Numbered from the stretch's first letter, positions 1 through 13,714 are shown. The stretch: DNA of 14,178 bases from a virus (IMGVR_UViG_2529293265_000015), one strand, 5' to 3'. The notes: generated by a model from the letters alone, not told the origin. Numbers and translations are program-made.

Positions 1-280
1 TACTGCGCATACGATTACCGGGTCATACAGGAGCAGTCTGGTCTGAAAACATCAATGTCGCGTAAAGGTAACTGTTACGACAACGCTCCGATGGAAAGCT
101 TCTGGGGAACGCTGAAAAAATGAGAGCCTGAGCTACTATCGTTTTAATAACCGGGATGAAGCCATCTCAGTAATACGGGAATACATTGAGATTTTCTACA
201 ATCGTCAGCGTCGTCACTCTCGTCTGGGGAATATCTCCCCGGCAGCCTTCAGGGAAAAATATCATCAGATGGCTGCTTAA
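1..280 (+). pseudogene. IS600 orfB transposase, 3' fragment, frameshifted
   Basis: Encodes the orfB C-terminus (...NISPAAFREKYHQMAA, stop 278..280). Relative to the full copy it has one extra A in an A-run (gctgaaaaaatgag at ~111..124, A6 vs A5), giving an in-frame TGA, plus one C>T change. Confidence 0.7.
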
Positions 281-323
281 AAAAAGAACAAATGGTAGTG
301 TCCGCTATTGCCAGTACACCTCA
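1..323 (+). mobile_element. IS600 (IS3 family), partial copy: right end only, truncated by the window edge
   Basis: 1..323 is the reverse complement of 10398..10720 of the complete copy, with 2 differences. It ends in the same terminal inverted repeat (...ccgctattgccagtacacctca at 302..323). Confidence 0.85.
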
Positions 324-489
324 GTTAGTCAGCTTCTTATCGAACTTGAGCTGAAGGATCTTAAAACAAGTTTCCATAGTGCTCCTGGATTTTCTCTTTT
401 TGGACATTGACGTCTCCACTGGTTTAAACACGGCAATGGAGACTGTGGTGAAAAGAGTTAATTCCCGGAGTGACTGGCGAATTCCAATC

Positions 490-615
490 AATGATCGGAA
501 GTATGCCAAATCGTGATCGATTGTGATGCCAAACTGTGATCGGAGATGGATGCCAAATCATGATCGATTCGAATGCCAAACTGCGATCGATTCAGATGCC
601 ATTTTGCAATCAGCG
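490..615. repeat. Array of ~5 imperfect 23-24 bp direct repeats, each containing GATC
   Basis: Repeat unit approximates ATGCCAAAYYRYGATCGRWTYR. GATC sits at 493, 515, 538, 562 and 585, a spacing of 22-24 bp. Confidence 0.8.
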
Positions 616-713
616 CCAGAACAGCAGCTGACAGGCCGTATTTGATTTTTGCGCTCATGGATATTTATCAGGATGCTACCAATGAAAGATACTGGAAAGC
701 CAACTGCAAAAAG

Positions 714-1028
714 CTAACAACCCGTAATCGAGTTATCAGAACTGTTAATTTTTATGGTATACCGCGCCTCTGAACAGGGGCGCGTTTCTGGCAACAGCTC
801 GTCCCCTTCACATAACCCGGCAGCAACATCCAAGAAGACCTGTCTGATGCTCCTTCTGGCTGCTGCCTCATAAAACTCCAGCGCGGCACCTTCAACACGG
901 TCCAGCGAGATGTCCAGGTCAAAAATTTCACCGTCAAAGCGTTTTTTGTCCCGTAACGCTAAAGTTACCGTAACTTTATTCTCAAAATTGCGGATCCCTT
1001 TCACAATCAGTTCATAGTTTTGAGTCAT
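714..1028 (-). CDS. YdfR-like small protein (104 aa) of the lysis cassette
   Basis: ORF with SD GGGGAGAG about 9 nt upstream, starting 4 nt after the holin stop. Position (holin, then ~103-aa protein) matches Qin essQ-ydfR; family assignment is from memory. Confidence 0.5.
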   Translation of the reverse strand: MTQNYELIVKGIRNFENKVTVTLALRDKKRFDGEIFDLDISLDRVEGAALEFYEAAARRSIRQVFLDVAAGLCEGDELLPETRPCSEARYTIKINSSDNSITGC

Positions 1029-1032
1029 TGAA

Positions 1033-1248
1033 TTACTCTCCCCGTGCAGCCTTACGACGGTCCTCTCTGATTTTGAAATACAGGTTAGTCAGATATGTCA
1101 GCAGCCCAAACAGCAGACTCCCCAGCACGCCTATTGCCGCCCACTGAGACGGGGAAACCCTGTCCAGCAACTGCAGGAACCAGTAGCCCGTTCCCACCGC
1201 TGACGTGGTGTATGACACACCTGTTGTGATTTTTTCCATCTGGTACAT
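1033..1248 (-). CDS. Class II holin / pinholin, phage 21 S-like (71 aa)
   Basis: [71 protein letters not shown] closely resembles the S21 pinholin, including the dual-start Met1/Met4 motif and two TM segments. SD GGGAGACGGGG lies upstream of the ATG at 1246..1248. The 106-aa track ORF has a spurious N-terminal extension. Confidence 0.85.
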
Positions 1249-1278
1249 ACCCCGTCTCCCGTTATCCGGAAGCTGACA

Positions 1279-1312
1279 ACAATAAAAAAGCCACCAGTTA
1301 AGTACTGATGGC
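1279..1312 (-). terminator. Intrinsic terminator-like hairpin between nanS-p and the holin
   Basis: On the minus strand: GCCAUCAG-uacuuaa-CUGGUGGC (8-bp stem with one G.U) followed by UUUUUUAUU. Confidence 0.5.
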
Positions 1313-1397
1313 TCTGATAACTCATGCAGGCATCTCAGACGACCCACTGACACTACCGGTGAGTTTAACGATACCTTCCATTTGGCTGGCTCACTTT

Positions 1398-3251
1398 TTA
1401 TGATGATGCCGGTGCATTTATCTCCAGCACCAGACTTTCTATCTCAACGCCATACGCTGCATTTTTGGTAATATCCGTCAGCGTCAGCGCATTCAGCCCC
1501 AGTGTCAGACTGTCTTTTATGACCTGGAATGCCGGGCCAGCCACTCCATTCAGTTTCGGAGTAACCGTGGCACTGCCGGCGGTGAACACCAGCTCCAGCG
1601 TCAGCCAGTCGTTACTGTAATTCCCGAACTCGCCCAACTTTGTGTTTCCTGCTTTCTTGTGATGCATCAGATTCAGTTTGCCGTCTGTGGTCTGGGTGAA
1701 GAACGACATCAGGAACGGGTTACCAGTCCCGGTCATCGCCACGACGTCAGGTAACGCTACATCGGTATACAGATAAATTCCCAGACCGAACTGGTTGTTG
1801 GTCAGTGCGCCTGACAGTCGAAACTTACAGCTCAGTCTGCCACCCCGTGTCAGCAGGGAGACTGCGTCATCCACCGGGCGCGTCAGGGACCAGGCTTTAT
1901 TGCTCTGCTTGGTGATCTTAAATACACCATCTGACAACTGAACTCCGCCATTCTTAATGCTCCAGCCCTGCGCAGCAGCGTCTCCGGCTGTCGGCAACAG
2001 GGAGATTGTGCGTATGGATGCATCTTCAGACGGCCCCGATGGCGTGTCGCCGCCGGGCGAGGGTTTGATTTCCGGTGCCTTACCACTAATGAAGGCTAAG
2101 GTGCGACCGGCTACGTTCAGAATAGCAGTTGCCATACGATCGGGAATAATGCCACGACGCGCCCATGAGCTGAAATGCGTCGGGCGATTTGATGATACCC
2201 AGTTTTTGTTCGTTCGGGATGCCGAACCGTAATAACCAGACCCGGCAATATCAGGATCTTCTGACGGGTTGTTTGTCGGTGTATTAACTCCGCTACCATC
2301 GGTCATAAAGGGAACAAAATAAATCTGCTGGGATTCTTTACCTTTATATGCACCATATACCACTTCATATTGCGTACCGTGTTCTTGTTTCCACGCGTAT
2401 GTCGTGTCGCCACAAATCCAGGGGACTGATGCCGGACTTCCACCGTGACACTGCGCCGCCAGCCCGGCAAGGTCAGCACGGAACTGCTGTACCATTGCAA
2501 GAAATGCTGCTGGCTGCTGGGCGTAACTGGCATTCGTCATATCGAATTCCCCCTGCATCCAGCATATCGCCAGCAAAACGTTTTTCGGGTTTTTCTGCAA
2601 TGCTGCCTTCGTGCGGAAAAGCAGATCCTGATATAACGGCTTACCCACTCCCCAGCGAGCCGAATCCTGACTGGCCCCCGTGGACTCGCTGAATGTCCCC
2701 TCCGTGCCCTGGGTGAATGCCGAACCACCACAACAGCATGGTACCAGCAGGATCCCCGCATTATTAGGGATATACGGAAGCAGTTTTTTGGCAATATGTA
2801 AGCCCTGTCCGACACAGCCGTACTGCCCTTTGCTCAGGTCAGCCCGGGGATGGTTAATCGTACTCATATCCTGAACATCATGCAGACAATGGTCAGCAGG
2901 AATGATGTCGTTAAATACGCATACTTCACCACCGGGAGTCACTGTGTTACGACGGGCCAGTTGCTTAATGCGCGGATGGGGCGCATCGTATGAATCCGGA
3001 AGCGGAAGACCTTCACCGTAAGCCATGGCATTGGATTGCCCGGCCAGTACGATGACGTAGTACCACTCCGGCTCAGTTGCACCACTGACGACCACATCAC
3101 CTTCTGCTGCAATCGCCTGCATCAGGGTATAAGGGGTTATGGCCACCGGACTACCAAACGGCTGCCAGCCCTCCTTCAGTTTTTGTGTCAGTCGTTTCGC
3201 AAGGTCTGACGGCGATGCCGCCCTGACCACGTCATAGTGTTTAAATGCCAT
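1398..3251 (-). CDS. nanS-p: Prophage sialate O-acetylesterase, NanS-p-like (617 aa)
   Basis: N-terminus [21 protein letters not shown]... and the SGNH/SASA motif [14 protein letters not shown] are typical of the phage-encoded NanS-p esterases found downstream of stx in Stx phages. SD GGGAGG upstream of the ATG at 3249..3251. Confidence 0.85.
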
Positions 3252-3476: not shown

Positions 3477-3780
3477 CACAAGAAAACCCCTCCGGAGAGG
3501 GGCTAAAGCCGCGTATCTGTATCATCATGCACATGGTGCCGGGTGCCTCCCGGTGAGTTCAGCCCGGTGCCACTAAACCCGCGTCATTCTCGTTTTGATA
3601 ATCAGAGATTATACCGTCACCAGTCGCCCCTCCGCTCAGGGGGATTCACCATGCGAAATTTTTTTAACAAATGCCCAGTCTGACAGGCAACTGTCAACTT
3701 ACTGAATTGTGAGCAACATAGCATTTAACGGGGAACCTGTTTTCTGCAGTAAAAAGGCCCACCGGAGCGGATGGGCCTGG
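3477..3780. repeat. Non-coding tandem module, copy 1 (~304 bp)
   Basis: Aligns with 3965..4216 at roughly 75-80% identity by eye. Shared blocks: cccctccggagaggg hairpin, gccgggtgcctcccggtga, cccctccgc.cagggggattcaccatgc, ttttaacaaa, caactgtcaac, ctgaattgtgag, and a terminal hairpin plus U-run on the minus strand (3751..3777). No ORF of 60 aa or more on the sense strand. Confidence 0.75.
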
Positions 3781-3964
3781 AAGGATAGCGGTCATGTGAT
3801 GCCGGTTTCCCGGTAACTCAGCACCGGTATCTGAGTCAACGTTTTCTCTACTGGGTCATTTCCGATACGCCCTGCCTGCTGACAGGCTTTCATCACATCT
3901 GAAAATATAGCACCCTGACTGATACTGTAGTACCTAAGGTTCCAGAAACTGTGATGTATCCGGC

Positions 3965-4226: not shown

Positions 4227-4303
4227 TGGCGCGTTGTACTGGATTCGAACCAGTGACCGATTGCTTAGAAGGCAATTGCTCTGTCCGGCTGAGCTAACAA
4301 CGC
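4227..4303 (-). tRNA. tRNA-Arg (anticodon UCU)
   Basis: Hand-folded cloverleaf on the minus strand: GCGTTGT acceptor pairs with ACAACGC, anticodon loop CTTCTAA, T-loop TTCGAAT, 3' GCCA. Confidence 0.8.
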
Positions 4304-4316
4304 ATGATGCAGATAA

Positions 4317-4393
4317 TGGACCGCCATCGGGGACTTGAACCCCGCGCAGCCAGCTTCGAAGGCTGGCGCTCTTTCCTGATGAGCTAATGGCGG
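4317..4393 (-). tRNA. tRNA-Arg (anticodon UCG)
   Basis: Hand-folded cloverleaf: acceptor CCGCCAT/ATGGCGG, anticodon loop CTTCGAA, T-arm CGGGG-TTCAAGT-CCCCG, 3' UCCA. Unusual C1-G72 pair and U73 discriminator. Confidence 0.7.
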
Positions 4394-4400
4394 TATGTGA

Positions 4401-4476
4401 TGGTGGCCCTTGCTGGATTTGAACCAGCGACCTGGCGATTATGAGTCGCTCGCTCTCACCACTGAGCTAAAGGGCC
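4401..4476 (-). tRNA. tRNA-Ile2/Met (anticodon CAU), ileX/ileZ-like
   Basis: GGCCCTTTAGCTCAGTGGT...CTCATAAT...GGTTCAAATCC...AAGGGCCACCA closely resembles E. coli ileX. Same Ile-Arg-Arg order as the tRNA cluster of Stx phages. Confidence 0.8.
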
Positions 4477-4516: not shown

Positions 4517-5575
4517 TCATCCGTTCTGGCTGACTAAATCCTGTACTTCCCGAACCGTCTGCTCAAAACGTTCAGTCTCCAGCTCAACGCCAATTGCACG
4601 ACGCCCGAGCGCCAGTGCCGCTTTCACTGTCGAACCCAACCCCATGAAAAAATCTGCAATCAGGTCACCCGGACGACTGCTAGCGCTGATTATCTGCTGC
4701 AGCATTTCTGCCGGTTTTTCGCACGGATGTTTCCCGGGATAGAACTGCACCGGTTTATGCGTCCACACATCGGTATACGGCACCTGCACCGTCACGCCAA
4801 AATACCGCCGCAGATGTTTATATTCACTCAGCAGCTCCGCATACTGCCGGTTCAGTGAGGTATACGTATCCACCAGCTGGTGGTGGAGCTTTTCCAGTTC
4901 ACCACGCCGATGCTTCTCTTCTGCCACCCGGGCAAACAGCGCCTGTAATTTCAGATAATCGCTTTCATTCGGCAACTGCCACTGACCGGCACTGAACCAG
5001 TGCGACACCATGTTTTTCTTTCCTGTGGCATCTGCAATCTGTTTTGCCGTTATCCCCAGGGCAGCTCGCGCATCACGAAAGTAAGAAATCAGCGGGGCCA
5101 TCACATGCTGTTTCAGTGCACTGCCCTTCGCCGCATACCCGGCATCTTTCGGACGATACGGCCCCTGATAATGTTCCGCGAACAGAATGCGCTCTGTGGC
5201 GGGGAAATACGCCCGCAGGCTTTCCTTGTTGCATCCGTTCCAGCGTCCGGACGGCTTCGCCCAGATAATATGGTTCAGCACACTGAAGCGTTCACGCATC
5301 ATGATTTCGATATCAGATGCCAGGCGATGACCACAGAACAGGTAAAGACTTCCGGCAGGTTTCAGCACCCGCCAGAACTGCGCCAGACACTGGTCCAGCC
5401 ACTTCAGGTAATCATCGTCGCCCTTCCACTGGTTATCCCAGCCCTCAGGCTTCACTTTAAAGTACGGCGGGTCCGTGACTATCAGGTCAACAGAATTTTC
5501 GGGTAACGACCGGATAAATTCCAGGCAGTCGGCGTTGATTAACTCACAACTGGATATTTTTACAGTATTAAGCAT
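4517..5575 (-). CDS. DNA methyltransferase, beta-class (N6-adenine or N4-cytosine), solitary
   Basis: 352-aa ORF with the N-terminal catalytic motif LIVTDPPYF and a C-terminal AdoMet motif DFFMGLGST; this motif order defines beta-class amino-MTases. No restriction endonuclease gene is adjacent. Target specificity is unknown. Confidence 0.8.
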   Translation of the reverse strand: MLNTVKISSCELINADCLEFIRSLPENSVDLIVTDPPYFKVKPEGWDNQWKGDDDYLKWLDQCLAQFWRVLKPAGSLYLFCGHRLASDIEIMMRERFSVLNHIIWAKPSGRWNGCNKESLRAYFPATERILFAEHYQGPYRPKDAGYAAKGSALKQHVMAPLISYFRDARAALGITAKQIADATGKKNMVSHWFSAGQWQLPNESDYLKLQALFARVAEEKHRRGELEKLHHQLVDTYTSLNRQYAELLSEYKHLRRYFGVTVQVPYTDVWTHKPVQFYPGKHPCEKPAEMLQQIISASSRPGDLIADFFMGLGSTVKAALALGRRAIGVELETERFEQTVREVQDLVSQNG

Positions 5576-5710
5576 GGATCATTAAGCCTGTCTCTGATAG
5601 GCTCATTCTGCTTTTGCGCAAAGCAGTGGGCCTGAGGTTTGCTTGTGAACCCAACGCATGAGCAGATGGCTGGTGGGTGCCCCTAACACCCACCAGCCGC
5701 CCATTTACCA

Positions 5711-5739
5711 CAAATAAAAAAGCCTTCACTGCGGAAGGC
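5711..5739 (-). terminator. Intrinsic terminator of the small HTH gene
   Basis: On the minus strand: GCCUUC-cgcagu-GAAGGC followed by UUUUUUAUUUG. It overlaps the stop codon of the 65-aa ORF. Confidence 0.6.
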
Positions 5740-5923
5740 GTCTGTAACAACCGAACTGATAGTCTGCCAGACCCGCCATAACCAGCTGGGTCAGTATTAA
5801 CTGGCAGCGTTCGCGTGAAAGGTAAGTATTCTGCGCTATCTCCCCGACTGTCGCCGGTTCGGTAACGCTTAATTCATTAAACACCACTCTGGCGGTTTCT
5901 GTCATATCCTGCTGTTTTAGCAT
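5726..5923 (-). CDS. Small hypothetical protein (65 aa), possibly a helix-turn-helix regulator
   Basis: ATG preceded by AAAGGAAAAG. The segment TVGEIAQNTYLSRERCQLILTQL looks HTH-like. It has its own terminator. Confidence 0.4.
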   Translation of the reverse strand: MLKQQDMTETARVVFNELSVTEPATVGEIAQNTYLSRERCQLILTQLVMAGLADYQFGCYRRLPQ

Positions 5924-6043
5924 GTCTTTTCCTTTTCCGGTTAACGTGACACACCAATAACTCTTGTCGAAAAAGCCAGCAAGCTGAAAGACAGGTATTC
6001 ACCGCCACCAGCGCGTTTACTGTACTGACGCGATTTCAGTCAT

Positions 6044-6065
6044 AAAAAACCCGCTCGGCGGCGGG
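6044..6065 (-). terminator. tR'-like intrinsic terminator of the short late leader transcript
   Basis: On the minus strand: CCCGC-cgccga-GCGGG followed by UUUUUU, about 65 nt downstream of the predicted pR' start. Confidence 0.65.
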
Positions 6066-6114
6066 TTGTAGAAACTCTTCTAACGTCAGGCATAAAACGC
6101 CCATCGTTATGACG

Positions 6115-6142
6115 AATTTACCACAGATTCCGGAAAAATCAA
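6115..6142 (-). promoter_or_regulatory. Late promoter pR'-like, with promoter-proximal pause element
   Basis: Immediately downstream of the Q stop on the minus strand: TTGATT, 16-nt spacer, TAAATT, then cgtcatAACGATGGG. This resembles lambda pR' (TAAATT -10 and AACGATGGG early-transcribed pause element). Confidence 0.6.
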
Positions 6143-6147
6143 CCTTG

Positions 6148-6969
6148 TTACCTAGTTACCTTTTTTAACTGCCGCTCAGCCCATGCTTCTTCAATATCAA
6201 ACCGGGTCACCAGCGCATCATAAAATTTCTTAACTGTTTTTTCCCATGACGCGCGTGTTATCTGGTTTGTCACCTCGCATATAGCATTAAATGCCTCCGT
6301 TGATGGTAGTCTTTCATAGCCACGACCACCACAACGCTGGCAGTCTCTGATAACAGGCATACCACGTTTTACCGACTCTTCACGATGAATGGCGACACCA
6401 CGCCCACGGCAATCCTTACAGGCGGTGGAAACCTCACCCTTTCCGCCACACTCCGGACAGGCAACTTTTACCACCTCCCTGACTTTTTTCCATTCTTCCC
6501 AGTAAGACGGATACACACCTTTCGTACACTTTGCCCATACCGGCGGCTTACCATCCGGATACTGGATCTTGTTTGTAAAAACCTCGCTTTCAATAAATTT
6601 TTTTCCGTGACAGCAGGGGCACTGTTTTTTGCTCGCCGCGCTACGGGCATAATCTTCAAACGCATACGAAGCCATAATACGCATCACTGCCGGTTTTATT
6701 TCTGCCGGGAGTTTTCTTAACGCCGCCACGCGATCACACCGACTGAGTGCATATTCTGTCAGCAATTCTGTTGCCCGCTCTCTGTCATTCATACTAATGC
6801 CCATTTTCCCAAGGAACGCAGAAACCCCCATCTCAGCCCGATTCTGTGTCATGCCCTGCGCGGCCATCACATCAGTGATACTCAGCGCATCTTTCGACGT
6901 TGAGGCCGATGCATCAGTCAGGCCGGGGGATTTTGGGGAGTAGTATTTCGGTAAATCTTCCAGTTTCAT
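6148..6969 (-). CDS. Late-gene antitermination protein Q (273 aa, zinc-finger type)
   Basis: Sits between rusA and the pR'/tR' pair. Several CxxC pairs (CPCCHGKK, CPECGGKG, CKDCRGRG, CQRCGGRG). Start overlaps the rusA stop (ATGA). Confidence 0.65.
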   Translation of the reverse strand: MKLEDLPKYYSPKSPGLTDASASTSKDALSITDVMAAQGMTQNRAEMGVSAFLGKMGISMNDRERATELLTEYALSRCDRVAALRKLPAEIKPAVMRIMASYAFEDYARSAASKKQCPCCHGKKFIESEVFTNKIQYPDGKPPVWAKCTKGVYPSYWEEWKKVREVVKVACPECGGKGEVSTACKDCRGRGVAIHREESVKRGMPVIRDCQRCGGRGYERLPSTEAFNAICEVTNQITRASWEKTVKKFYDALVTRFDIEEAWAERQLKKVTR

Positions 6970-8406: not shown

Positions 8407-8685
8407 TTACCTCCAGATCCGTTGCTGGAATGTGCGGGACGGACGCGTTGGCCGTTCGGAGTAAGGGAGCCTGACGGAGATTATCCAGTGACGGTAGTCG
8501 AGGCTAAGGGCTTTTTTAACCTCGCATCCGCGCCTGCGGTAACACTGAATGAGCCATTCGGCCTGTTCTTCAGTGCATGGGGGATGCTGGTACCAATCAG
8601 ATTTAAATGCGTGAGAGCGCCGCCCGTGCCTGCTGGCAAAGACGGCTGAATTATCAGAATTGTGTAGTCTGGAATTTTGCGCCAT
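8407..8685 (-). CDS. Hypothetical protein (92 aa), translationally coupled to the DUF968 gene
   Basis: ATG with SD GGAGAAA about 6 nt upstream; its stop lies in the SD region of the downstream gene. Family not recognised. Confidence 0.4.
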   Translation of the reverse strand: MAQNSRLHNSDNSAVFASRHGRRSHAFKSDWYQHPPCTEEQAEWLIQCYRRRGCEVKKALSLDYRHWIISVRLPYSERPTRPSRTFQQRIWR

Positions 8686-8751
8686 CGGCTTTCTCCGGTG
8701 GCACAGTGTTACTCAACAGGGGTTCAGCCCTGCGCTGAATTGTAGATGAAT

Positions 8752-9012
8752 TCACTCATCTTCAAAAGCAGAAAAACCAGCCTTAATCCCAGCTTCTTTC
8801 AGAGACGGCAACGATGTGACAAATTCATTTGCACGCGAAATAAAACCATCCGTCACAAGCCCATCCACAAAATGAATTAACGCAGCTCCACTCTTCCTTT
8901 GTTGAGACTGTAAACATTTAATACGGCAGTGGCTGACAATAGCGCCATTCTCAACGCGCACAGTATAGAGGCCATCTTCACTAAAAATTTCACGTAATTC
9001 TTCGATTTTCAT
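8752..9012 (-). CDS. Hypothetical protein (86 aa)
   Basis: Likely real start is the ATG at 9010..9012 (SD GGAAGGA upstream), one codon inside the track ORF's TTG. Occupies the position of rem in Qin; identity not established. Confidence 0.45.
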   Translation of the reverse strand: MKIEELREIFSEDGLYTVRVENGAIVSHCRIKCLQSQQRKSGAALIHFVDGLVTDGFISRANEFVTSLPSLKEAGIKAGFSAFEDE

Positions 9013-9232: not shown

Positions 9233-9388
9233 TTACTCCTCAGGTTCGTAAGCTGTGAAGACAGCGACCTCCGTCTGGCCGGTTCGAATTCGTACCTCGC
9301 AGAGGTCTTTCCTCGTTACCAGTGCCGTCACTATGACGGTTAAACAGATGACGATCAGGGCGATTAACATCGCCTTTTGCTGCTTCAT
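9233..9388 (-). CDS. hokD: Hok-family type I toxin, HokD/RelF-like (51 aa)
   Basis: MKQQKAMLIALIVICLTVIVTALVTRKDLCEVRIRTGQTEVAVFTAYEPEE is a single-TM Hok-family peptide; by recall it matches E. coli HokD (RelF). SD AAGGAG lies 7 nt upstream of the internal ATG at 9386..9388. The track ORF 9233..9445 is an in-frame upstream extension. Confidence 0.85.
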   Translation of the reverse strand: MKQQKAMLIALIVICLTVIVTALVTRKDLCEVRIRTGQTEVAVFTAYEPEE

Positions 9389-9679
9389 AGCCTGCTTCTC
9401 CTTGCCTTTCGGCACGTAAGAGGCTAACCTAGATTTGCCGTTCATAGATTGAGCCTCAGATTAATGTTAAGCGTCTTGCCGGACGCGTAATGTTAACTGG
9501 GGCTTTTCTCTATCTGCCTTTTGGTGTTCATGCCTGAGACAGATAGCCTCAAGCACCCGCTGCAATTCTACTTAACTCTCCTTTTCCCGCAAACCGTTTT
9601 TATCCCCAGCGGCAAATCGAATACACCACCAGCGCCACCGCCATCGCAATTCCTACCGTTGTTAATGCTTCAGGCCAGG

Positions 9680-10397: not shown

Positions 10398-10440
10398 TGA
10401 GGTGTACTGGCAATAGCGGACACTACCATTTGTTCTTTTT

Positions 10441-11259
10441 TTAAGCAGCCATCTGATGATATTTTTCCCTGAAGGCTGCCGGGGAGATATTCCCCAGACG
10501 AGAGTGACGACGCTGACGATTGTAGAAAATCTCAATGTATTCCCGTATTACTGAGATGGCTTCATCCCGGTTATTAAAACGATAGTGGCTCAGGCTCTCA
10601 TTTTTCAGCGTTCCCCAGAAGCTTTCCATCGGAGCGTTGTCGTAACAGTTACCTTTACGCGACATTGATGTTTTCAGACCAGACTGCTCCTGTATGACCC
10701 GGTAATCGTATGCGCAGTACTGTGAACCTCGATCAGAGTGGTGGATTAGCCCGGCAGGTGGGCGCTGGCTCCTGAGCGCCATAAACAGGGCTTTACCTGT
10801 CAGCTCTTTTGTCATGCGCTCTCCCATGGCGTAGCCGACAATTTCGCACGTATAAACATCTTTGATGCCAGCGAGGTACAACCATCCCTCCTGTGTGGCA
10901 ACATACGTCAGGTCCGCCACCCAGACCTGATTTGGTGCTGTAGGAGCGAACGTCTGGTTCAGCAGATTTGGCGCAACTGGCAGATTGTGGTTCGAGTTCG
11001 TAGTCGCTCTGAACTTGCGTTTCTGCTTACAGTGTAGCCTTAGCTCCTTACGAAGACGTGCCAGTCGGTCACGACCAACGATGATGCCATTCTCTGCCAG
11101 CTCCGTCTGGAGCCGCCGGGTTCCATATGTTTCGCGAGTGCGGATATGTGCCACCTTAATCTCCAGTTTTAGCCGCTCATCACTTTGTTTTCTGTCTGAG
11201 GGTTCATGCTGTACCCAGTTGTAATAACCGCTCCTGGATACACCAAATACCTGACACAT
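10441..11259 (-). CDS. IS600 OrfB (transposase catalytic domain), expressed as OrfAB by -1 frameshift
   Basis: 272-aa frame with the integrase/DDE-type core (...HSDRGSQYCAYDY...NAPMESFWGTLKNE...). The orfB frame runs upstream to overlap the orfA 3' end. Confidence 0.85.
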   Translation of the reverse strand: MCQVFGVSRSGYYNWVQHEPSDRKQSDERLKLEIKVAHIRTRETYGTRRLQTELAENGIIVGRDRLARLRKELRLHCKQKRKFRATTNSNHNLPVAPNLLNQTFAPTAPNQVWVADLTYVATQEGWLYLAGIKDVYTCEIVGYAMGERMTKELTGKALFMALRSQRPPAGLIHHSDRGSQYCAYDYRVIQEQSGLKTSMSRKGNCYDNAPMESFWGTLKNESLSHYRFNNRDEAISVIREYIEIFYNRQRRHSRLGNISPAAFREKYHQMAA

Positions 11260-11294
11260 CGCTTCAATGGGAAATTGTTGTCGCCATTGTTCGA

Positions 11295-11597
11295 TTAACG
11301 CGTATTTTTCAGCGACTCCTGTGCAAAATACGCTGTTGCTTTTTTTAATATATCTCGCTCAAGGCGAGCTTCATTTAACGCCTTACGCAGTTGCAGAATT
11401 TCAGATTCCAGTTCAGCCACCGTGCGGGAACCAGGAGTACCGAGCCCTTTTCTGGCGGCGGTAACCCATTGTCCTAAAGTGCCTTCAGGAAGAGATAATC
11501 GGGAAGCGCCTTCACTGATCGAAAGTTGATTTTCAGGAACCGTTCTGACAGCTTCGGCTTTGAACTCTTTAGAGTAACGTTGGGTTTTTCTGCTCAT
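11295..11597 (-). CDS. IS600 OrfA (100 aa)
   Basis: MSRKTQRYSKEFKAEAVRTV...LERDILKKATAYFAQESLKNTR, recognised from memory as IS600 ORF1. Confidence 0.85.
   Translation of the reverse strand: MSRKTQRYSKEFKAEAVRTVPENQLSISEGASRLSLPEGTLGQWVTAARKGLGTPGSRTVAELESEILQLRKALNEARLERDILKKATAYFAQESLKNTR
11339..11346 (-). other. Programmed -1 ribosomal frameshift site of IS600
   Basis: AAAAAAAG on the minus strand, at the end of orfA where the orfB frame overlaps. Confidence 0.6.
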
Positions 11598-11661
11598 TAT
11601 TAGCTCCTTCTGATGCCATTCTATTTCAGGAAGGAGTGTCCGTTAAACTCAGGCTACCTCA

Positions 11662-12051
11662 AAAATTAAAGGGCAGGTTGTTGAACTTGTACGTCTGAGC
11701 GGTCGCGAGACGTTGCGGCAACTGGAAGCCAAGACAGGTGCGACAAGATATCTGATGAGTGTTCTCGCCAGAGAGCTGGTTGCCAGTGGCGATGTATACA
11801 ACTCTGGTTACGGGTTATTCCCGTCTGAACAGGCGCGTAAGGACTGGCAAAACGCCCGCAAAAAACTCTCAAGGGCAAATCTGAAGAAACCATCTGTGGT
11901 TGATCCTGACCTTATCTGGTCATTACCAGACGGAGAAATACGCCGCTACGACAGGCGTCAAAACATAATCTGTAGCGAGTGCCGGAAGAGCGAAGCTATG
12001 CAGCGTGTACTGGCTTTCTATCAGGGTAATTTTCAGAAGGTGCTGTTGTGA
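11662..12051 (+). pseudogene. Unknown gene, 5'-truncated by IS600 (at least 129 codons remain)
   Basis: The plus-strand frame is open from the IS600 boundary (SKIKGQVVELVRLSGRETLRQLEAKTGATRYLMSV...QGNFQKVLL) to the stop at 12049..12051. The track places a TTG start at 11713; the first in-frame ATG is at 11755. Confidence 0.45.
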
Positions 12052-12178
12052 GCCAAATTAACAATCGGAACTTCGTGAAGAGAAAGCATAATCCAAAATC
12101 TGAATAATTAAGTTCAGCACTGTGGTGATGCTGCCAACTTACTGATTTAGTGTATGATGGTGTTTTTGAGGTGCTCCA

Positions 12179-12454
12179 GTGGCTTCTGTTTCTATCAGCT
12201 GTCCCTCCTGTTCAGCTACTGACGGGGTGGTGCGTAACAGCAAAAGCACTGCCGGACATCAGCGCTATCTCTGCTCTCACTGCCGTAAAACATGGCAACT
12301 GCAGTTCACTTACACCGCTTCTCAACCCGGTACGCACCAGAAAATCATTGATATGGCCATGAATGGCGTTGGATGCCGGGCAACTGCACGCATTATGGGC
12401 GTTGGCCTCAACACGATTTTACGTCACTTAAAAAACTCAGGCCGCAGTCGGTAA
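12179..12454 (+). CDS. insA: IS1 InsA (91 aa)
   Basis: [20 protein letters not shown]...[12 protein letters not shown] with a GTG start. Confidence 0.85.
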
Positions 12455-12876
12455 CCTCGCGCATACAGCCGGGCAGTGACGTCATCGTCTGCGCGGAAAT
12501 GGACGAACAGTGGGGCTATGTCGGGGCTAAATCGCGCCAGCGCTGGCTGTTTTACGCGTATGACAGTCTCCGGAAGACGGTTGTTGCGCACGTATTCGGT
12601 GAACGCACTATGGCGACGCTGGGGCGTCTTATGAGCCTGCTGTCACCCTTTGACGTGGTGATATGGATGACGGATGGCTGGCCGCTGTATGAATCCCGCC
12701 TGAAGGGAAAGCTGCACGTAATCAGCAAGCGATATACGCAGCGAATTGAGCGGCATAACCTGAATCTGAGGCAGCACCTGGCACGGCTGGGACGGAAGTC
12801 GCTGTCGTTCTCAAAATCGGTGGAGCTGCATGACAAAGTCATCGGGCATTATCTGAACATAAAACACTATCAATAA
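12373..12876 (+). CDS. insB: IS1 InsB frame (expressed as InsAB' by -1 frameshift)
   Basis: 167-aa frame ...[21 protein letters not shown]...[18 protein letters not shown]; the A6C slippery motif ttaaaaaactc is present. Confidence 0.85.
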
Positions 12877-12899
12877 GTTGGAGTCATTACCTACATCGG

Positions 12900-13671
12900 G
12901 GTGATGCTGCCAACTTACTGATTTAGTGTATGATGGTGTTTTTGAGGTGCTCCAGTGGCTTCTGTTTCTATCAGCTGTCCCTCCTGTTCAGCTACGGACG
13001 GGGTGGGTGCGTAACAGACAAAAGCACTGCCGGACATCAGCGCTATCTCTGCTCTCACTGACCGTAAAACATGGCAACTGCGGTTCACTTACACCGCTTC
13101 TCAACCCGGTACGCACCAGAAAATCATTGATATGGCCATGAATGGCGTTGGATGCCGGGCAACTGCACGCATTATGGGCGTTGGCCTCAACACGTATTTT
13201 ACGTCACTTAAAAACTACAGGCCGCAGTCGGTAACCTCGCGCATACAGCCGGGCAGTGACGTCATCGTCTGCGCGGAAATGGACGAACAGTGGGGCTATG
13301 TCGGGGCTAAATCGCGCCAGCGCTGGCTGTTTTACGCGTATGACAGTCTCCGGAAGACGGTTGTTGCGCACGTATTCGGTGAACGCACTATGGCGACGCT
13401 GGGGCGTCTTATGAGCCTGCTGTCACCCTTTGACGTGGTGATATGGATGACGGATGGCTGGCCGCTGTATGAATCCCGCCTGAAGGGAAAGCTGCACGTA
13501 ATCAGCAAGCGATATACGCAGCGAATTGAGCGGCATAACCTGAATCTGAGGCAGCACCTGGCACGGCTGGGACGGAAGTCGCTGTCGTTCTCAAAATCGG
13601 TGGAGCTGCATGACAAAGTCATCGGGCATTATCTGAACATAAAACACTATCAATAAGTTGGAGTCATTACC
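12900..13671 (+). mobile_element. IS1, degenerate 772-bp copy, in tandem with the first (8-bp spacer tacatcgg)
   Basis: Same terminal sequences as copy 1, but several indels and substitutions in the insA region and at the frameshift window. Confidence 0.85.
13132..13656 (+). pseudogene. Truncated InsA'-InsB fusion frame in degenerate IS1 copy 2
   Basis: Indels (cacgtattttacg...ttaaaaactacagg versus cacgattttacg...ttaaaaaactcagg) put the insA 3' part and insB in one DNA frame, while the insA 5' part carries frameshifts. Confidence 0.6.
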
Positions 13672-13714
13672 CGGCACTGTAAATAAAATTTAATCCTTAA
13701 CTGGAGGTATATCT

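Follow-up and report, generated by a model that had tools for sequence, protein, structure and literature searches.

The lysis region described here is very probably the remnant of a Qin/phage 21-type lysis cassette, carried by a lambdoid prophage of the Shigella sonnei type and destroyed by nested insertion sequences. A cassette of this type comprises the S21 pinholin, YdfR, the SAR endolysin R21/RrrQ and Rz/Rz1. Within the stretch of viral DNA that was analysed (IMGVR_UViG_2529293265_000015, 14,178 nucleotides, hereafter the window) the minus strand is the late region of a lambdoid prophage, in which the first two genes of the cassette can be recognised in full and the third gives way, near its start, to the end of one insertion sequence that is in turn cut off by another. 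The features on which this reading depends are as follows, in order of their coordinates.

1-323, plus strand: 3' part of IS600 (IS3 family), coding for the C-terminus of orfB and closing at 323 with its terminal inverted repeat ...CACCTCA; cut by the window edge
324-608, minus strand: fragment of ISSso4 (IS21 family), 285 bp, with the left terminal region and the first 18 istA codons; cut off by IS600
324-377, minus strand: start of istA, ATG at 377-375, 18 codons (METCFKILQLKFDKKLTN), beginning ATG GAA ACT
471-608, minus strand: left terminal inverted repeat region of ISSso4, six 23-bp units, core CGATCAnnnTTTGGCAT
488-658, minus strand: chimeric open reading frame of 56 aa, starting MSAKIKYGLSAAVLALIA, in which 17 residues come from the endolysin and the rest from reading on into the ISSso4 terminal repeats
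609-613: ATCAG, the expected 5-bp target site of the ISSso4 insertion, of which only one junction is present here
609-658, minus strand: 5' remnant of a SAR-type endolysin gene, 50 nt (16 codons and 2 nt), delimited by alignment with the E. coli 042 cassette and the ISSso4 end
659-713: spacer between the YdfR and lysozyme genes, of normal form
714-1028, minus strand: DUF1327/YdfR-family gene, intact, 104 aa (PF07041, E = 5e-39)
1033-1248, minus strand: class II holin of the phage 21 S type, intact, 71 aa, beginning MYQMEK (PF04971)
1287-1315, minus strand: terminator-like hairpin of 12 pairs between the esterase gene and the holin, from a consensus scan only
1398-3251, minus strand: upstream late gene for a 617-aa NanS-p-like esterase (DUF1737, SASA and DUF6645), in RefSeq a 'SASA family carbohydrate esterase'
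4227-4476, minus strand: three tRNA genes, Met(CAT), Arg(TCG) and Arg(TCT), between the methylase and esterase genes
4517-5575, minus strand: DNA methylase
6148-6969, minus strand: late antiterminator Q, 273 aa (PF03589), which would govern the late operon to which the holin belongs
9233-9445, minus strand: hok/gef-family toxin gene (PF01848, E = 3e-23) in a nin-like region upstream of DUF968-RusA-Q
10398-11661: second IS600, complete, inverted relative to the copy at 1-323, inside a DUF977 gene and upstream of Q
12124-12891 and 12900-13673: two tandem IS1 copies, 8 bp apart, the second with small indels

The initial annotation had placed an S21-like pinholin and a YdfR-like gene at this position, and both are there, each with its Pfam match and an intact reading frame. 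The holin matches the 'Bacteriophage P21 holin S' profile over positions 1-63 of 64 (E = 9e-33, 112.5 bits against a cut-off of 26), and a crude hydropathy profile gives it a strong segment at residues 33-60 preceded by a weaker one rich in Gly, Ser and Thr. Pinholins of the S21 type have two transmembrane segments, of which TMD1 is only weakly hydrophobic and exits the membrane. No NCBIfam model matched the holin, YdfR or Rz. The interval first drawn around the cassette ended at 1353, which is the GTG of the longest open reading frame and not the limit of the gene, as the real start of the holin lies at 1248. The dual-start motif that was thought to have been kept is present as codons, with in-frame ATGs at 1248-1246 and 1239-1237 (Met1 and Met4, that is codons 1 and 4) and GGGAGA six nucleotides 5' of the first, but the Met-Tyr-Gln extension between the two starts has no Lys or Arg, and it is an extra positive charge that is the defining property of the S21-71 antiholin relative to S21-68 (PMC9636201). 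The longer of the two predicted products is thus no more than a putative antiholin.

The holin protein is identical to that of an intact cassette in E. coli 042, and it is also identical in eight of nine S. sonnei-type loci that share the junctions described below. The locus L015 (an NCTC assembly, holin at 9411-9626) carries the missense change S44C in the second transmembrane segment. The YdfR protein is the same in all nine, and an exact-protein look-up for it returned only intact E. coli prophages.

When positions 280-1400 of the window were compared by megablast with 5,426 complete E. coli genomes, thousands of prophages were found, the best matches (99.6%) spanning 606-1400 only, with homology to intact cassettes ending at 606-609. 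The RefSeq annotation underneath these matches reads, in order, SASA family carbohydrate esterase, class II holin family protein, 'YdfR family protein' and lysozyme. In E. coli 042, where the cassette is intact, holin and YdfR are followed by a lysozyme of 177 aa, an Rz-type lysis protein of 154 aa and the packaging genes, and the 042 lysozyme is homologous both to the phage 21 lysozyme (3hde), from residue 12 on, and to RrrD (4zpu). In a three-way alignment the window agrees with the 042 lysozyme gene as far as ...CGCTGAT and then continues in a different sequence; aligning an intact cassette, the step originally suggested for finding the endpoints, therefore puts the break at 608/609, within endolysin codon 17. 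A tblastn search with the 042 lysozyme finds only residues 1-18 in the window (658-605, 18/18 identical), the last two of these residues matching only because the IS terminus happens to code for them, TGCA supplying the next Ala by chance.

The rest of the cassette was not recovered. The 042 Rz protein as a tblastn query gave a chance-level match in the window (E = 3.9) and none in the nine related loci, the PF00959 lysozyme domain is absent from the window and from the 10 kb adjoining it in related genomes, and when the 042 DNA between lysozyme and terminase was compared with the nine loci, only the last 60 bp of that region matched. The earlier statement that endolysin and Rz/Rz1 are missing consequently stands for Rz and for the body of the endolysin, but the endolysin gene is truncated and not wholly gone, as its first 50 nt persist.

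The stretch of about 390 bp beyond the YdfR gene had been described as repeat-containing non-coding DNA. The array of repeats is indeed there, but the stretch breaks down into an intergenic spacer of 55 bp, the 50 nt with which the endolysin gene begins, and 285 bp from the left end of ISSso4, the last including the 18 istA codons. Likewise the short minus-strand reading frame with a hydrophobic N-terminus that runs into GATC repeats was found, at 488-658; what had gone unrecognised is that it is the endolysin 5' stub fused to IS sequence. Of the SAR hydrophobic segment about half is left, a catalytic domain is lacking, and the 56 aa have no match in Pfam. A protein identical to this chimera occurs in 196 blocks of an assembly collection, S. 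sonnei chromosomes among them.

The DNA that follows the endolysin stub (324-608) matches the left end of ISSso4 with 100% identity over 285-286 bp, the matching copies being on E. coli chromosomes and plasmids and on plasmids of S. sonnei and E. albertii that are annotated as 'IS21-like element ISSso4 family transposase'. In L002, which has the element intact, the match lies at 3501-3786 and the istA CDS ends at 3554, the stretch being the left end together with the first 54 nt of istA. The intact reference element encodes an istA product of 511 aa (NF033546, E = 1e-85) and istB, and has AGGAA on both flanks as a 5-bp duplication. The window holds some 11% of the element, with no transposase, no helper ATPase and no right end, so that what is left is an immobile scar, a fragment rather than a functional member of its family.

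The history of the locus beyond the window edge can be followed in nine chromosomal loci with an identical junction (L013-L021), each of which was retrieved with 10 kb on either side. Two of these genomes are more than 99.9% collinear with the window, and L018 (CP026802) is collinear with 99.97% identity over 10,657 bp. CP026802 is S. sonnei ATCC 29930 (PMC9430107), and two further loci are on chromosomes whose next-numbered plasmid accessions are S. sonnei. Both junctions, that between endolysin and ISSso4 and that between ISSso4 and IS600, are identical in all nine and so predate the split of these strains.

There are also differences amongst these loci away from the cassette. Six of the nine (L013, L014, L016, L017, L019 and L021) have an extra IS600 at 5609-6872, between the tRNA cluster and the esterase gene, at a point equivalent to 3782-3786 in the window and upstream of the holin; this copy is absent from the window. 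The same six are without about 250 bp that correspond to window 8675-8924, where the window-type loci have a gene call of the Rem family (PF27490). The T-run of the hairpin at 1287-1315 is one T shorter in the window than in L018 and L015 (an indel at 1284). The tRNA cluster between a methylase and an esterase gene is an arrangement as in Stx-type late regions. Further upstream the IS1 pair has inserted into a stretch of prophage DNA (DUF977-DUF4014) that E. coli JB2 and ATCC 25922 have unbroken, and the inverted pair of IS600 copies (1-323 and 10398-11661) brackets a 10-kb segment, from hok to the endolysin stub, that could in principle invert.

The IS600 at 1-323 shares 99.8-99.9% identity with the complete 1264-bp copies of L013-L021 and with the window's other copy. 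The terminal inverted repeats TGAGG.../...CCTCA are present, and the element abuts the ISSso4 fragment at 323/324, directly after istA codon 18. It had been recorded as an inverted partial IS600; the element is there, but it is partial only through the edge of the window and is complete (1264 bp) in nine out of nine related loci. An A-run at 113-118 has six A residues where the collinear S. sonnei genomes have five, which shifts the frame of orfB (GTLKK*), and this extra base could be either a genuine mutation that inactivates the gene or an error in sequencing the homopolymer. At 134 the window and the collinear genomes differ as well (T/C).

No 3-bp target duplication accompanies this IS600, the flanks being AAC/GCC in the window-type genomes and AAC/ATT in the other strains, so that the element is not a simple insertion and a later rearrangement is indicated. 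What lies on the far side also differs between strains. In the window type (L015, L018 and L020) it is a truncated IS21 proper, with istB cut, istA intact and in the opposite orientation, followed by the tail genes Z, U, V, G, T, H, M, L and K, and in the other six loci it is the end of a tail-fibre gene, then tail-fibre assembly genes, IS1 and trpABC. In L018 the IS21 proper occupies 11600-13460, where its istB is cut by IS600 and it stands directly upstream of tail gene Z, a second IS21-family element bordering the missing segment. Lysozyme, Rz and the remainder of ISSso4 were all sought within 10 kb beyond IS600 in the nine loci with the identical junction, and none of them was found.

Taken together these observations suggest a sequence of events. 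ISSso4 entered the endolysin gene after nucleotide 50, in codon 17, fusing the SAR start to the left end of the IS, an event that can be read from the junction itself; the endolysin would thus first have been interrupted by ISSso4 rather than cleanly deleted. IS600 now abuts ISSso4 after istA codon 18, which is likewise visible as a junction, and the parsimonious reading of the nesting is that ISSso4 was there before IS600. Thereafter recombination at IS600, or a deletion adjacent to it, may have taken away or moved elsewhere the remainder of ISSso4 and of the endolysin, together with Rz/Rz1 and the genes for packaging and head, a step that we infer from the missing target duplication of IS600 and from the two kinds of far-side neighbour that it has among the strains. 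Further changes mediated by IS600 would then have differentiated the strains.

Displacement by inversion deserves to be considered as an alternative to loss, although we regard it as unlikely. An inversion between inverted IS600 copies could have moved the missing half elsewhere, with the endolysin body, minus its first 16 codons, and the spanins now at a distant IS600 junction. The missing target duplication fits an inversion as well as it does a deletion, the occurrence of one junction with two far-side contexts in different strains points to IS600-mediated rearrangement that is ongoing, and two inverted copies of IS600 are found within the window itself. The right junction that would be predicted, GCAGCAATCAG joined to TGCGTATTCCGC, has no exact match in a species-representative genome collection, a negative result without weight, as the observed junction is also absent from that collection and from a metagenome collection, both of which thus lack S. 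sonnei. In any case an endolysin gene that had been inverted away would be promoterless, would be without its start and SAR segment and would be separated from these by about 2.4 kb of ISSso4, so that the functional conclusion would be the same.

A simple nested insertion, with the rest of ISSso4, the endolysin and Rz/Rz1 immediately beyond IS600 and the cassette interrupted only, would be compatible with the window alone, which ends within IS600, but it is scarcely credible given that the nine genomes with the identical junction have no lysozyme, Rz or ISSso4 in the 10 kb beyond, that IS600 has no 3-bp target duplication and that the IS21 on its far side is another element, which faces the opposite way. 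The nine loci and the duplication-free flanks rule it out for the 10 kb next to IS600. An intact endolysin gene beyond IS600 had been named beforehand as the finding that would speak for mere insertion, and none of the nine loci has one within 10 kb.

With its cassette truncated by nested insertion sequences, the prophage encodes neither a muralytic enzyme nor a spanin, and it is therefore unable to lyse the cell on its own. That it is defective for lysis, with a cassette that is truly truncated, was already claimed in the initial annotation, and the want of an endolysin body and of Rz, both in the window and in the adjoining 10 kb of the nine loci, agrees with this. S21-type pinholins, whose usual partners are SAR endolysins, form heptameric channels of about 2 nm through which the proton motive force is lost (PMC9636201). 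The holin expressed alone would be expected to depolarise and kill the cell without lysis, if Q were ever to activate late transcription. A depolarising toxin under the control of Q is plausible on the biology of pinholins, since several terminator-like hairpins lie on the minus strand between Q and the holin, and these are consistent with Q-dependent expression of the holin. However, IS600 and the two IS1 copies interrupt the early region on which expression of Q would depend.

It might be asked whether the surviving genes have been put to use. A combined proposal, that the holin/DUF1327 pair is fixed across S. sonnei and kept as a Q-triggered module and that, separately, CGATC makes the transposition of ISSso4 sensitive to Dam methylation, must be seen as a long shot. 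We know of no description of control of transposition by Dam methylation for the IS21 family. That the orphan holin and DUF1327 are under selection as a domesticated module, for example as a Q-triggered suicide or depolarisation device, is very improbable when taken by itself. It is true that both genes are intact and are identical in eight of the nine loci, that the holin is that of intact E. coli prophages and that the junction is common to divergent S. sonnei strains; with a divergence between S. sonnei strains of about 0.023% (PMC7373316), however, an intact gene of 216 bp is what would be expected under neutrality. Moreover one strain already has the S44C missense change in its holin, and the damage done to the upstream early region by IS600 and the two IS1 copies also tells against such a module.

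The repeats that gave the locus its unusual appearance can be accounted for by the insertion sequence. The units run from 608-586 through 585-563, 562-540, 539-517 and 516-494 to a degenerate one at 493-471, and Tandem Repeats Finder (TRF) reports an array at 492-601 with a period of 23 and about 4.3 copies. The outermost unit, on the 608 side, opens with the terminal TG, the fragment ends ...TGCA at 608, and a leader separates the units from the start of istA. GATC sites occur at 493, 515, 538, 562 and 585, a spacing of 22-24 bp, and related repeats are found inverted at the right end of the intact ISSso4. The ends of IS21-family elements carry multiple direct repeats (L1/L2 and R1/R2) 23 bp apart, each bound by the HTH domain of IstA, together with a terminal CA and 5-bp target duplications (PMC10122671), and the fragment has this same architecture of terminal TG...CA and direct repeats of about 23 bp. 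We infer that the GATC repeats are probably IstA-binding sites of ISSso4 that were brought to the locus with the IS. The repeat DNA, whose origin was at first not recognised, is the left terminal repeat region of ISSso4 and is native neither to the phage nor to the host locus.

CGATC is present in every 23-bp repeat of ISSso4, with five GATC sites at the left end (window 471-608) and three at the right end (L002 1147-1215). The left end of IS21 proper (L018 13311-13520) has zero.

That the array is a regulatory element of the locus, such as Dam/SeqA sites, iterons or a phase-variation switch, can be given almost no weight, for although five in-register GATC sites at 22-24 bp look non-random, the array agrees in every base with the terminus of a mobile element on many unrelated replicons (100% identity), is mirrored at the other end of ISSso4 and has the 23-bp spacing of IS21-family transposase sites (PMC10122671). 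A Dam/SeqA/iteron-type array was accordingly ruled out as an explanation of the repeats, the DNA being 100% ISSso4 and mirrored at the opposite end.

The relevance of the locus lies mainly in annotation, the repeat DNA being explained as an ISSso4 end and the small hydrophobic reading frame as an endolysin stub. The breakpoints at 608/609, where ISSso4 enters the endolysin, and at 323/324, where IS600 enters istA, could be used as strain or lineage markers, and recognising them prevents the 56-aa chimeric reading frame from being mis-annotated as a gene. As for a toxic remnant, the orphan holin may reasonably be put forward as a candidate.

IS600 is one of five IS elements that have expanded in all Shigella species. 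The decay of the prophage by insertion sequences is of a kind that is already known, and the junction is present in many public S. sonnei genomes. The published list of IS elements in S. sonnei includes IS1, IS21, IS600 and ISSso4, the documented way in which Shigella genomes decay is by IS expansion and convergent gene loss, and IS600 behaves here like the IS-driven gene loss that has been described for Shigella (PMC7373316). Compared with complete copies of IS600, to which it is 99.8-99.9% identical, the window copy differs by the one-base frameshift in orfB and the missing target duplication. With ISSso4, an element of about 2.64 kb carrying istA and istB, the window has the left end in common, from the terminal TG through the 23-bp direct repeats to the start of istA.

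Set beside the phage 21/Qin-type cassette of E. coli 042 (NC_017626, 1421.3-1423.3 kb), the window agrees in gene order and is 99.6% identical in its DNA from the esterase to nucleotide 50 of the lysozyme, but its endolysin is cut after codon 16-17, and Rz/Rz1 and everything downstream as far as the tail genes are absent. As a pinholin/SAR-endolysin system it has a holin and a DUF1327 protein that conform in sequence to their families, and it falls short in endolysin and spanin. The cryptic prophages DLP12 (essD-rrrD-rzpD) and Qin (essQ-ydfR-rrrQ-rzpQ) of K-12 are likewise defective lambdoid prophages with a class II holin downstream of the Q gene; DLP12 and Qin, however, retain their endolysin and spanin genes, whereas the prophage in the window keeps only the holin and DUF1327.
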